DNA of 64,000 bases from Candidatus Falkowbacteria bacterium (GTDB lineage Bacteria > Patescibacteriota > Patescibacteriia > UBA11705). Where the stretch lies: positions 235,097 to 299,096 of the forward strand of contig DOZJ01000002.1 of the NCBI GenBank assembly GCA_003518055.1. Reading direction: 5' to 3'. Of the stretch, positions 4,571 through 30,675 are shown in pieces; position 1 is the first letter of the stretch; the number at the start of each line of letters is the position of its first letter. The notes under the pieces are model-generated. The model worked only from the letters and a program-made list of their open reading frames with translations, was not told where the DNA came from and ran no database searches. The position numbers were made by a program, and so were the translations under genes.

Positions 4571-5275
4571 TTAGAGAAACCATGATTTCAAGAGATCAAA
4601 CAACGCTCCGGTTAAGGCGACCGCACCAATTGCTAGCGCTGCCCCCAAAATTATAATAAACCAAAGGGGAAAACTGCAGCCACAGCAAGTCCCACCCCCG
4701 CAGCCGAGTGAAAGAACCAACCTCAAAATCATTCTTTTTACAAATTGTTTTTTCTTTTTTTCCTCATTGGCCGCGGCCAATTGAAGGTCCGGTTCATCGT
4801 CCATCATTTCCGGCATTGATTCGGTTTCCTCATTCTCATCTTCAAAATCCGGTTCAGTCATTTCCTCTTCTTGTGGTTCTTCTTCGTTGTTTAATTCAGG
4901 ATTTGTTTGTTGTTGTTCCTCCCTTTTGTCCCTTCGCGCGCGGCGCAGGGTGCTTTCAATGCTTTGGGGGCCGGCCGCGTCAAAGGATGCTGGAGTCATA
5001 GGTGCAAAACCGGCTTCGTTTTGGTTTTTTATGCGGTTGATGGGTTGTTCTGAATTGATTTCAGGAACGCGGAACTGAGGTGCGGGGGTGGGCGCTTCAA
5101 GTCCGGTTTTTTGTCTCGCCAACTTGGATGTGCGATCTTGATTCAAAAGCGTGGCATACAGTTGTTCCGATGCGGTTGGTTTGGTCGGTCTTGAATTTTG
5201 ATTAACCGGCGGCGGTGTTTGATTTATTTGTGGGTTTGTTTGCGCCATGTTAAGTAAATTTGAGTGGCCACACAC
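4571..5275 (-). CDS. Hypothetical C-terminally membrane-anchored protein with an acidic low-complexity region and a CGGGTCCGC motif
   Basis: Long ORF with a Glu/Asp-rich segment (EPDFEDENEETESMPEMMDDEPD) and a C-terminal TM helix preceded by a Cys cluster. The true start is probably the internal MAQTNPQIN at about 5248. Confidence 0.45.
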   Translation of the reverse strand: MCGHSNLLNMAQTNPQINQTPPPVNQNSRPTKPTASEQLYATLLNQDRTSKLARQKTGLEAPTPAPQFRVPEINSEQPINRIKNQNEAGFAPMTPASFDAAGPQSIESTLRRARRDKREEQQQTNPELNNEEEPQEEEMTEPDFEDENEETESMPEMMDDEPDLQLAAANEEKKKKQFVKRMILRLVLSLGCGGGTCCGCSFPLWFIIILGAALAIGAVALTGALFDLLKSWFL

Positions 5276-9707: not shown

Positions 9708-9845
9708 AATAAATAGTATACAGTCATCAATGATGCGGACACGCAGCTGCTGCCTATCCGCACGCTTTATAACTATATCGGCTTGAAAGTCTTTAGCCTA
9801 TCAAGTTTTTGTAACGTTTCGTAATTTTTTGTAATTTCGTAACCC

Positions 9846-10400
9846 CTAAAACTCAACCTTAACATTTTCTTTTTCCGTCGCATCAGCCTCAAAGAATTCA
9901 TACTTCTTGAATCCGAGCAGTCCAGCTACCAAATTGTTCGGGAAAATCTGAACCTTGGTGTTGAAATCCCGGACGTTACCATTGTAGAATCGGCGTGCCG
10001 CTTGGATTTTATTCTCGGTATCGGAGAGTTCATCTTGCAGTTTCAAAAAGTTTTGATTGGCTTTTAGATCAGGGTAAGCTTCGGCCAAAGCAAAGATTGA
10101 TTTCAAGGTTTGTGACAGCATATTTTCAGCTTCACCCTTGTCATGAGCACCACTCGCGTTCATAGCGTTGGTGCGGGCTTCGGTCACTTTTTCAAAGGTC
10201 GCGCTTTCGTGGCTGGCATAGCCTTTGACCGTATTCACCAGATTTGGTATCAAATCATAGCGGCGTTTGAGCTGAACATCAATATCTGACCAAGCCTCAT
10301 CGGTCCGATTTTTGAGCTTGATCAGGCCATTGTAAATGCCAATGAGCCAGAGCGCCACCACGACCACTACGGCTAGAACAATATAACCTAATTTGTCCAT
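9846..10400 (-). CDS. lemA: LemA family protein
   Basis: N-terminal TM helix plus the LemA signature (NGLIKLKNRTDEAWSDIDVQLKRRYDLIPNLV ... RRFYNGNVRDFNTKVQIFP). Confidence 0.9.
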   Translation of the reverse strand: MDKLGYIVLAVVVVVALWLIGIYNGLIKLKNRTDEAWSDIDVQLKRRYDLIPNLVNTVKGYASHESATFEKVTEARTNAMNASGAHDKGEAENMLSQTLKSIFALAEAYPDLKANQNFLKLQDELSDTENKIQAARRFYNGNVRDFNTKVQIFPNNLVAGLLGFKKYEFFEADATEKENVKVEF

Positions 10401-14519: not shown

Positions 14520-14790
14520 TTTTGTCCGCCATAAGACGCCTGCCTGCCGGTAGGCAGGGACTCGTCCTCTGGCGAGTCGTTATAGTTATACTTTTGTAAA
14601 AGCCACGTCTTCTATAAGTGTTACTTCCGCTGCGCCCCTGCCTACCGGCAGGCAGGCGCCGGAGCTCTACGCCCTGTCCACCGACCTGTATGCCATAGCT
14701 TTAGCGAAGGCATAAGCGTTATGCGTAGGTGGAAGTAAGAGCGTAGGTGGGTAGTTACGGTTAAAGGAAACAAAAAAGATCTGTTTTTAC
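14520..14790. ncRNA. Candidate structured non-coding RNA of unassigned type
   Basis: A 20-nt long-range inverted repeat (CCTGCCTGCCGGTAGGCAGG at about 14540 pairs with CCTGCCTACCGGCAGGCAGG at about 14639). Local hairpins include GACTCG-N8-CGAGTC and TATGCC-N14-GGCATA, plus a direct repeat CGTAGGTGG x2. GC content is well above the flanks. The segment lies between convergent genes and has no ORF. Confidence 0.35.
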
Positions 14791-23490: not shown

Positions 23491-23515
23491 GTGTTGATTA
23501 AACATCCTAACAGGG

Positions 23516-24283
23516 GTGTTTTTTTGTTGTCAAAATCAGCTGATTGTTATATTCTGGTTAATGGATAAACCGAAATTTATTGAAATTAAGAAATTAGGAA
23601 ATTCGTCGGTAGCCAATGAATTTCAATCAATTTCTACTAATTTCTCGCCGAAGGACGAATTCGTCCTATGGCGAACAACTAATTTCATTTTTAATTGTTA
23701 TATCATGAATATCCGCTTAATATTTTTTCAGCTGTTGGCGCCGATTTATGATTGGCTGCACTTTGCCAGCGTCGGCCGCACCGTTGCTGCTTTGCGGGTG
23801 TTGAATTTTCTGGGCCACGACAAAAAAGTTTTGGATCTTGGCGGCGGCACCGGCCGGCTTGCGCTTCGAATTAAAAATATGGTTGGCTCCCTTACCGTTG
23901 TAGACGCTTCAACCTCAATGTTGAAAGTCTGCCGGCGGCGCGGCTTGGACTGTCATTTGGGTTTGGCCGAGCAGATTCCTTTTCAGAAAAATTATTTTGA
24001 TTCCGTTGTTATCGTTGACGCCTGGCATCATTTTCCCGAACCGGAATCAGCCCTGAGAGAAATCAGCCGCGTACTCAAACCGGGCGGCCGGATATTTATC
24101 GAAGAAGTTAATCCGAGCAGTATTTTTGGTTGGTTGTTAAAATCAGTGGAAAATATTTTGCTTATGCGCAGCCGCTTTTATCATCCGGCCGACCTGTCGG
24201 CGTTGATGACCCGTCATTTTTCAGCCGTCGAAATTGTAAAATCAAACCCAAGGTTTTATTATGTGATCGGAACGAAGCATTAG
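23516..24283 (+). CDS. Class I SAM-dependent methyltransferase (Methyltransf_11-like)
   Basis: Motif I VLDLGGGTGRLAL, motif post-II VIVDAWHHF and LKPGGRIFIEE. The true start is probably MNIRLIFF at 23705, downstream of the hairpin repeat element. Confidence 0.75.
   Translation: MFFCCQNQLIVIFWLMDKPKFIEIKKLGNSSVANEFQSISTNFSPKDEFVLWRTTNFIFNCYIMNIRLIFFQLLAPIYDWLHFASVGRTVAALRVLNFLGHDKKVLDLGGGTGRLALRIKNMVGSLTVVDASTSMLKVCRRRGLDCHLGLAEQIPFQKNYFDSVVIVDAWHHFPEPESALREISRVLKPGGRIFIEEVNPSSIFGWLLKSVENILLMRSRFYHPADLSALMTRHFSAVEIVKSNPRFYYVIGTKH
23591..23688. repeat. Hairpin repeat element (copy 1), with an inverted partial copy upstream
   Basis: TAATTTCTCGCCGAAGGACGA-att-CGTCCTATGGCG (12-bp stem with one mismatch), preceded by the reverse-complement fragment GAAATTAGGAAATTCGTCGG. 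A near-identical copy lies at 49446-49507. Confidence 0.6.
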
Positions 24284-24392
24284 GGCGGGAATGACACAGC
24301 ATATGCTTAGATCCTGAAATAAATTCAGGATGACACGCAGATAGGATCTCCCCGAATATAAAGAGTACGATTGCTGTTTTTCATTTTATCGT

Positions 24393-25265
24393 TTGCTGCT
24401 GTACTCGCTGTACTCGCTTTACTTGCTTTACTCGCTTTACTCGCTTTACTTGCTTTACTCGCTTTACTCGCTTATAACTTATCTCGCTTATTCTATGATT
24501 GGTGTTTTTGACTCCGGTCTCGGCGGTCTGACCGTGCTCAAAGAATTGATCGCCCAAAATCCGACCGAAGATTATCTGTATCTCGGTGACACAGCTCATC
24601 TGCCATACGGCAATCGTTCGGCTGAAAATATTTATGAATTAACGCGAACAGCGGTAGGTTTTTTATTTAATAATGGCGCTGGCAAAGTTATTATCGCCTG
24701 CAACACCGCCTCGGCCAAAGCCTTACCTAGATTAGAAAAAAAATATTCGGAAAAAGTGATCGGTGTGATTGATCCGGTGGTTGAATATTTCGCGTCTTTG
24801 CCGGTGACTCGAATCGGGGTAATCGGTACGCGGGCGACGATTGGCTCGGATATTTATCATCAAGAAATAAAAAAAATGGCGCCGGCAAAAGAGATTTTTT
24901 CCATTGCAGCGCCGCTTCTGGTTCCGTTGGTCGAGGAAGATTTCAGCCATCGGCCGGAAACGGAGAGCATTTTACGGGAATATCTAAATGTGTTAAAATT
25001 GAACAAAGTTGAAGCCCTGATTTTGGGCTGCACTCATTATCCTATGCTGCTTGAAGTGGTCAAAAAGATTATGGGTGCGGAATGCCTGGTACCGAATCCC
25101 GCTGCCATTGTGGCTGAGGCCACGGCCAAAAGGTGGAACCTTGACGGTTCTCTCGGGCGTGAAGGCCGCCGCCGGTATCTCGTGACTGACTTGACTGCCA
25201 ATTTTGAAATCGCGGCTGAGCGGTTTTTGGGGCATAAAATTCATTTGGAGAAGATAAATTTATAA
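24393..25265 (+). CDS. murI: Glutamate racemase MurI
   Basis: GVFDSGLGGLTVL N-terminal motif, the active-site Cys regions (IIACNTAS, ILGCTHYP) and a length of about 257 aa from the true start MIGVFDSG at about 24495. The ORF-track N-terminal extension is translated repeat DNA. Confidence 0.9.
   Translation: MLLYSLYSLYLLYSLYSLYLLYSLYSLITYLAYSMIGVFDSGLGGLTVLKELIAQNPTEDYLYLGDTAHLPYGNRSAENIYELTRTAVGFLFNNGAGKVIIACNTASAKALPRLEKKYSEKVIGVIDPVVEYFASLPVTRIGVIGTRATIGSDIYHQEIKKMAPAKEIFSIAAPLLVPLVEEDFSHRPETESILREYLNVLKLNKVEALILGCTHYPMLLEVVKKIMGAECLVPNPAAIVAEATAKRWNLDGSLGREGRRRYLVTDLTANFEIAAERFLGHKIHLEKINL
24399..24470. repeat. Tandem repeat, 8 units of the 9-bp CT[GT]TACT[CT]G
   Basis: ctgtactcg ctgtactcg ctttacttg ctttactcg ctttactcg ctttacttg ctttactcg ctttactcg, immediately upstream of the murI start. 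Confidence 0.85.
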
Positions 25266-30477: not shown

Positions 30478-30675
30478 GTTTATTTGTGCGGGGAAGTGTT
30501 TTGCCAGATATCAACTGTGAGTGGTTTATTGGTGGCTAACGCTGGTTTTATGCTATAATTTAACCAGAAATAATGTAAATTATATTACTAATTTACTAAT
30601 ACTACAAAAATTACAGAAACTACACTTGATGTTTTTGTAACTATTTGTAATGTTTTGTAATTTTGTAACACCAAT

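Follow-up and report, generated by a model that had tools for sequence, protein, structure and literature searches.

A 32-nt hairpin core from groundwater bacteria, best read as a very small REP-like insertion element

Known hairpin elements and the 32-nt core

Among described systems, those closest to the sequence analysed here are the REP and REPIN repeats with their RAYT transposases, for which the E. coli REPs and the Pseudomonas REPINs serve as references (PMC3116915, PMC3337134, PMC3733652). REPs carry a tag, either an unpaired 5' GTAG, or a CGTC together with an AT-starting 8-9-bp stem and a CCA tail (PMC3733652). Hairpins also mark the ends of IS200/IS605 elements and PATEs, and foldable, non-autonomous intergenic repeats are familiar as bacterial MITEs (Correia, MITEAba12). 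CIRCE/HrcA provides a precedent for an inverted repeat that is conserved across phyla. The genomes of the candidate phyla radiation (CPR) are tiny and regarded as repeat-poor.

In a 64,000-nt stretch of a Candidatus Falkowbacteria genome (the whole stretch analysed, hereafter the window), a first-pass annotation had described the same hairpin at two unrelated loci, and the hairpin is indeed there: the 28-nt pattern CGCCGAAGGACG-N4-CGTCCTATGGCG occurs at 23646-23673 (site A) and 49466-49493 (site B), both on the + strand, against 0.00 matches expected from 100 dinucleotide-preserving shuffles of the window. The annotated repeat was real but placed 1-2 nt off, since TTTCTCGCCGAAGGACGA..CGTCCTATGGCG lies at 23641-23673 and 49461-49493. 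Around it, the two sites share a direct repeat of 51 nt with 84% identity (23637-23687 and 49457-49507).

Like REPs and REPINs, the core of this repeat is a short (20-40 nt), GC-rich, imperfect and non-coding palindrome, extragenic and placed between genes of operons; it is composed of two inverted sub-units that fold into a bigger hairpin, and a RAYT gene is present in the window. Unlike them, it has neither a GTAG nor a CGTC tag, and its stems and loops fall outside the described families, its sub-units being 4-bp/8-nt hairpins with complementary loops. The letters CGTC do occur in the core, and membership of the CGTC-tagged REP family was considered and rejected because the architecture does not match. 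REPs number tens to hundreds per genome; the core, counted as exact copies, has 2-3 per representative genome and thus looks low in copy number. RAYT genes are flanked by REPs (the REPtron), whereas no core flanks the window RAYT; and REPs are lineage-specific, whereas the 32-nt core is common to several phyla.

The likeness to IS200/IS605 ends and PATEs lies in small hairpins at both ends, on one strand, in insertion without target-site duplication, and in a left flank with some conservation (T at -2, mostly NTC^); excision would be seamless. The two hairpins of the core, however, abut with nothing between them, and their loops are complementary instead of alike; the core has no adjacent tnpA or tnpB, and no counterpart of the family's guide/cleavage-site pairing was identified in it. 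With MITEs, the core shares a non-autonomous, intergenic and foldable character as well as insertion polymorphism between relatives. MITEs conserve their terminal inverted repeats and make a target duplication, whereas here the ends differ from lineage to lineage, the interior 32-mer is conserved and duplication is at most 1 nt; inverted ends surround the core in some lineages only (e.g. L021). CIRCE, finally, resembles the core in being an inverted repeat of several phyla whose arms are invariant and whose spacer varies, but it sits at orthologous chaperone promoters and requires no covariation between flank and spacer, whereas the core sits at non-orthologous sites beside unrelated genes. 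The core behaves like REP/REPIN and IS200/IS605 ends, yet fails defining features of both.

Two abutting hairpins or one long hairpin

The hairpin had been described as an identical 12-bp stem with different loops, a description that missed two things. One stem position is a G.T pair and another an A.A mismatch, only the other 10 being Watson-Crick, and the four loop bases covary with the bases that flank the stem. In the aligned copies, the dinucleotide just 5' of the stem is always reverse-complementary to the first two 'loop' bases, and the dinucleotide just 3' of it to the last two. The 'loop' bases therefore pair with bases on either side of the stem, and the unit is 32 nt long: xyCG-CCGAAGGA-CGy'x' abutting uvCG-TCCTATGG-CGv'u', each half a 4-bp hairpin closed by an 8-nt loop. 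Over 15 distinct copies, 97.5% of the stem cells are paired, a value reached by 0 of 500 shuffles, and registers slid along the sequence give only 21-53% pairing; all four variable pairs covary, each with double changes. G.U intermediates are absent from the 120 stem cells, and a test for pairing between the outer flanks in the register of the long hairpin found none. The 20 searched core bases are invariant by construction of the search pattern, which imposed neither the flanking CG pairs nor the covariation.

The loops CCGAAGGA and TCCTATGG are themselves complementary at 7 of 8 positions, including one G.U, with an A.A mismatch at the remaining one. The same 32 nt can therefore refold as a single imperfect, GC-rich 12-bp hairpin with a 4-nt loop, at -18 to -21 kcal/mol. 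Folded as free RNA, the long hairpin reaches -18.4 kcal/mol and the twin hairpins -6 to -12.5 kcal/mol, so that the long fold is better by 6-12 kcal/mol and the twin-hairpin fold would need some stabilising factor. One copy (L021) has turned into a perfect palindrome. The earlier suspicion of selection on structure thus survives in altered form, because the structure does covary, but the covarying fold is a pair of 4-bp hairpins that use the 'loop' bases and not a conserved stem with a variable loop. More generally, covariation from loop to flank is a warning that a 'conserved stem, variable loop' reading can conceal an alternative fold.

A covariance model was built on the collected copies and run unfiltered on the window, where it returned the two exact copies and one degenerate copy. 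Copy A (23644..23675, + strand) reads CTCG-CCGAAGGA-CGAA / TTCG-TCCTATGG-CGAA and scores 61.4 bits (E 8e-18); copy B (49464..49495, + strand) reads CTCG-CCGAAGGA-CGAG / CCCG-TCCTATGG-CGGG and also scores 61.4 bits. Copy C is reversed (14525..14576, - strand) and lies between convergent genes. Read on the + strand, it is TCCG-CCATAAGA-CG[20-nt GC hairpin 14539-14558]GA / CTCG-TCCTCTGG-CGAG; one of its stems is split by the inserted 20-nt GC hairpin, and its loop-loop pairing is maintained through A-U and G.U changes. An origin or strand switch was considered as the cause of its reversal and set aside, the GC skew being uninformative. The inserted hairpin belongs to a second small family of GC palindromes, CCTGCCTnCCGGnAGGCAGG, found at 14539-14558 and again at 14637-14656, 100 nt apart; a similar palindrome, GCCTGCCTGCGCAGGCAGGC, lies 3' of a gene in L008 at about 1450-1470. 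A further 18 kb from this genome, past the two ends of the window, held no additional copy, which gives 3 copies, one of them degenerate, in ~84 kb of this genome. When ~470 kb were scanned by twin-hairpin geometry alone, no family other than this one was recovered.

Both exact copies are embedded in AT-rich repeats. The 5' flank of copy A (23572..23643, + strand) is lineage-specific and sets ~4 GAAATT units opposite 3 AATTTC units with a 10-nt period; it folds as a long AT-rich hairpin, and the core breaks its final AATTT^C unit. The 3' flank (23676..23687, +) reads C-AACT-AATTTCA. Copy B is preceded by the same kind of inverted AATTTC array (49406..49463, +; GAAATTAGTTGAAAT ... GAATTTCCTAATTT) and followed by CTATA-AATTTCA (49496..49507, +). 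The AATTTC-type sequence noted upstream of the hairpin is thus present, as is its inverted copy at site A (GAAATTAGGAAATTCGTCGG, 23591-23610), but this arrangement is not confined to site A: the GAAATT/AATTTC hairpin precedes the core at both sites, and the counterpart at site B (GAAATTAGTTGAAAT, 49409-49423) had been overlooked. The site A flank also shares the 11-mer CAATTTCTACT with the single orphan Cas12a repeat found in the genome (GTCTAATATCAATATTCAATTTCTACTTTCGTAGAT, L042 17297-17332, without an array). Kinship with this repeat was rejected: no GTAGA partner exists in the window, and we therefore take the shared 11-mer as a coincidence. The window itself ends in a cas12a gene (62670-64000), followed downstream by cas4, cas1 and cas2 (L042 11020-17332).

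At site A, the preceding gene ends in an intrinsic terminator (23500-23521) and a sigma-70-like promoter follows (23527-23555). Copy A lies downstream of this promoter, which is conserved in a relative, and ahead of a class I methyltransferase whose ATG is at 23705; its position relative to the transcription start is therefore within the methyltransferase 5' UTR, as the first reading of the locus had left to be checked. Public gene calls give the methyltransferase as a 240-aa protein (P0185, window 23561-24283) that reads through the element, and the homologue in the closest relative has 191 aa, consistent with a start at 23705. The automatic call was misled because the element was read through as coding. 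Site B is the 177-nt spacer between gatC and gatA, whose GatC and amidase products are assigned.

Empty sites, targets and spread

The closest relative that we found is syntenic at both loci (GatA 82% and methyltransferase 65% identity), and all three window sites are empty in it. The gatC-gatA spacer measures 177 nt in the window and 3 nt in the relative; the methyltransferase 5' UTR, behind the same promoter, ~150 nt and 29 nt; and the spacer of the convergent genes around copy C, 330 nt and 63 nt. In two other relatives, gatC and gatA are separated by 20 and 31 nt. In practice, the element splits operons and extends 5' UTRs.

The closest relative contains 96-127-nt segments that are 100% identical to L009 and L018, and L018 duplicates the L007 region. 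Judged from these shared sequences, it appears to be the same genome as the carrier of the cores L007 and L009 at other loci, or a near-identical one. A near-identical genome would thus carry cores elsewhere and yet be empty at the window sites, so that sister lineages would hold the family at non-orthologous positions. The identical segment (L031 15077-15203, L009 1-96, L018 1-127, in CG10 Falkowbacteria assemblies) starts an ORF (MAKTIKEERLRWVLPIVRKE...) and is probably an insertion sequence that breaks assembly.

Excision of exactly 32 nt brings the local repeat back into phase in five lineages. It restores the AATTTC+4 array with its 10-nt period at site A, a 7-nt GATTTnn array at L021, a 10-nt array at L015, and, at L002, a unit junction in a 48-nt tandem array whose adjacent junctions are empty. 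On Brocadiaceae contigs, it restores AATCTGTG^TAATCA, i.e. the 13-mer AATCTGTGTAATC, of which the contig has at least 8 further occurrences without a core. L024 has its core inside a tRNA-like T-loop, GGTTC^AAATCC. No target duplication longer than 1 nt was found at insertion sites; the base 3' of the core equals its first base in ~10 of 13 cases, and the left flank is mostly NTC^.

The window holds other short repeats as well. About 11 tandem copies of the 9-nt unit GCTTTACTC occupy window 24389-24487, between the methyltransferase and a racemase gene, in a spacer of 211 nt that measures 21 nt in the closest relative (L040 10577-10597). A 42-nt intergenic repeat of 86% identity, built of TTTGTAA/TTCGTAA units with a period of ~10 nt, occurs at 9805-9846 and 30631-30672; this short-period array has no core.

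An exact-pattern scan of one genome per species extended the family from the two annotated copies to several phyla. Its exact copies came from five sources (two Falkowbacteria genomes, another Patescibacteria MAG, an Omnitrophica MAG and a Brocadiaceae MAG), with 2-3 per representative genome, and a metagenome scan added copies from groundwater and sediment. Of the findings that were to count against the hairpin at its first description, a family of only two copies does not hold, as many more exist elsewhere, but a lack of conservation in relatives does, as none of these copies is at an orthologous position. Copies within one genome have common flanks over 30-145 nt; between lineages the flanks are unrelated, and only the T at position -2 is conserved. 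The 32-mer TCCGCCGAAGGACGGATTCGTCCTATGGCGAA (TCCG..CGAA) is identical in Omnitrophica, Brocadiaceae and one Falkowbacteria genome, and because this identity across three phyla includes the variable positions, it points to transfer of the core itself.

The exact pattern was not found in viral contigs, and blastn against plasmids and phages gave no match. Rfam, which had been named as a place to check, has no match at the core: there is no window hit at gathering score and no hit overlapping the core at E <= 10. A full-text literature search with core 10-mers returned unrelated primer matches only. Two carriers hold additional core-like sequences. In L009, a second, diverged core (4719-4757, loops CCGAATGA / TCCTCTGA) lies inverted 9 nt from the exact copy, as a head-to-head doublet. 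In the Omnitrophica contig L001 (about 1719-2020), the core has a 41-nt copy of the tRNA-Leu(CAA) 5' half on one side and the intact tRNA-Leu gene on the other; a gene for a serine recombinase is ~350 nt away, and the flanks hold more degenerate core-like hairpins.

A candidate enzyme and the competing readings

The core is a discrete 32-nt unit with covarying stems, polymorphic in its insertion, spread across phyla with unrelated flanks and present in both orientations. Our preferred reading is that of a new hairpin insertion element, very small and REP-like, whose core can take either the twin-hairpin or the long-hairpin fold and which is mobile within and between lineages of groundwater bacteria. 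The suggestion of a small mobile repeat, one of two made when the hairpin was first noticed, is strengthened by the three window copies missing at orthologous sites of the nearest relative, by the two orientations and by the unrelated neighbouring genes in several phyla. The other, a gene-specific regulatory hairpin, finds no support, given neighbours without a common function, the same mixture of orientations and the lack of conservation at orthologous positions. On balance, we lean towards a very small mobile DNA element that has the conserved hairpin as its core, is non-autonomous, resembles REPs and IS200 ends and is moved in trans. In such a scheme, the 32-nt block would enter intergenic DNA at short AT-rich repeats or at hairpin loops, with a target duplication of at most 1 nt, and the core with its local repeats would subsequently be copied as a composite within a genome. 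Movement could occur as folded single-stranded DNA, through a Y1/HUH transposase of the IS200/IS605 or RAYT type acting in trans, which would recognise one small hairpin as the left end and the other as the right end. Any effects on neighbouring genes, as 5' UTR or intercistronic hairpins, would be secondary.

The window encodes a candidate for the trans-acting enzyme, a REP-associated tyrosine (Y1/HUH) transposase (RAYT; 38066..38662, + strand), which scores 101 bits against NCBIfam NF047646 (cut-off 80), matches Pfam Y1_Tnp and has E. coli TnpA-REP (4ER8) as its best PDB match. Hairpin ends, absence of duplication and seamless empty sites would all fit a RAYT-type enzyme. Yet the RAYT gene, separated from its neighbours by gaps of 1 and 7 nt, has no core beside it; 55.7 kb around four RAYT homologues (48-55% identity) contain none; the RAYT subfamily has a different conserved hairpin of its own within the coding sequence; and a core-bearing relative retains only a RAYT remnant at the syntenic place. 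For these reasons we keep the window RAYT as a candidate enzyme only.

The RAYT gene has further features of its own. Inside it lies a perfect 44-nt palindrome (window 38358-38401), and in every homologue the corresponding codons preserve a hairpin, GAAGGCG-n-CGCCTTC, whose stems covary (L035 293-320; L037 10304-10331; L039 5377-5404 and 5754-5781); L039 has an extra copy directly behind the stop codon. In the protein, an EGxxRxxRL segment follows the palindrome and lies in an insertion relative to E. coli TnpA-REP. This internal hairpin may be the recognition hairpin of the transposase subfamily itself. The RAYT of the closest relative is a 3' half with an in-frame stop, upstream of ligA (L031 1336-1666).

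The mobile-element reading has to contend with an apparently low copy number (2-3 exact copies per genome and 3 in ~84 kb, against hundreds for classical REPs), with the missing core near the RAYT genes and their own hairpin, with the RAYT remnant of the core-carrying relative, with the lack of a viral, plasmid or phage carrier in the collections searched, and with a twin-hairpin fold that is less stable than the long hairpin. The placement of the copies would also fit an RNA function. All are intergenic, beside unrelated housekeeping genes (gatA, rpsF, ssb/rpsR, rplU, yebC, dus, a pseudouridine synthase, serS/lysS and a WecA-like transferase); where a neighbour can be defined, as it can for 15 copies, ~12 are in sense to the gene downstream and three in antisense, and five copies stop 25-29 nt short of a start codon. 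As the genomes are compact, this last spacing is in large part set by how long the element's own 3' tail is. A structured RNA module in the transcript, a 5'-UTR or intercistronic hairpin that spreads because it is useful, is an alternative that we rate as unlikely. It might serve mRNA stabilisation or processing, translation gating or the binding of a conserved RNA-binding factor; in the gating version, the long hairpin hides an SD-like GAAGGA against UCCU beside an AUG, and the twin-hairpin fold would expose them. The preservation of both small stems by covariation speaks for such a module, together with the mostly sense orientation, the copies that stop short of start codons, the position of site A in a 5' UTR, a strand with G.U instead of C.A that is usually the mRNA strand, and the good folding of complete elements as RNA (z = -5.6). 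It is countered by the antisense copies (L007, L004/L022 minus, L017), by one copy between convergent genes, one in the tRNA-like T-loop and one beside a tRNA, by the unrelated downstream genes and the empty orthologous sites of the nearest relative, by a mini-ORF behind the AUG that is not conserved, and by the lack of a U-tract and of G.U intermediates in the stems. A downstream gene lacking an SD is unremarkable here, as only ~13 of 56 genes have one. A leader peptide behind the SD/AUG was rejected as an explanation in itself (mini-ORFs of 4-20 codons, not conserved; ~23% of genes here with SD) and survives only inside the RNA reading; an intrinsic terminator was also rejected, because terminator scans call none at either core and no U-tract follows the hairpin. 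An RNA-level role for the sense copies may exist, perhaps alongside mobility.

Two further explanations bear on the shape of the element. Within-genome copies share 60-145 nt of flank and sometimes inverted ends (L021: TTAAATCATAAATC ... GATTTATGATTTAA), as would be expected if the copies were relics of an ordinary longer MITE or IS end of which the hairpin, itself inactive, is the sole surviving similar part. We consider this very improbable, given that an identical core within flanks unrelated between lineages is the reverse of the conserved ends of MITEs, that flanking repeats without the core occur beside filled ones, and that compensatory changes maintain the pairing of the stems. The same compensatory pattern weighs on a double-stranded DNA site for a dimeric protein, whether a CIRCE-like operator or a recombinase crossover site with 12-bp inverted arms and a 4-bp centre, because nothing in duplex binding would make the centre covary with the outer flanks. 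The 28-bp imperfect palindrome with its invariant arms and variable 4-bp centre would suit such a site, the CIRCE/HrcA precedent shows that an inverted repeat can cross phyla, and the L001 core has a serine recombinase gene and the duplicated 5' half of tRNA-Leu in its vicinity; other loci, however, have no conserved adjacent regulator or recombinase gene, promoter distances vary, and the orthologous promoters of the relative have no copy. A duplex site therefore seems to us very improbable.

Returning to the mobile-element reading, a bolder form of it may be offered tentatively: the 32-mer could by itself be a complete hairpin transposon with two alternative folds, and possibly the smallest unit of mobile DNA yet described. 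Alternatively, the twin hairpins could be a new conserved recognition module for RNA or protein. As a transposon, its two end-hairpins would collapse into a single REP-like hairpin; it would cross phyla among co-resident groundwater bacteria (CPR, Omnitrophota, Planctomycetota) and target short tandem arrays and hairpin loops, including the tRNA-like T-loop, with a putative single-strand DNA enzyme as its mover. An element of 32 nt would be a minimal substrate for studying how hairpin elements of the REP/IS200 type are recognised and moved. The shared 32-nt insertion, if it reflects real exchange, would also mark DNA traffic between Falkowbacteria, Omnitrophota and Brocadiaceae cells of the same aquifers.
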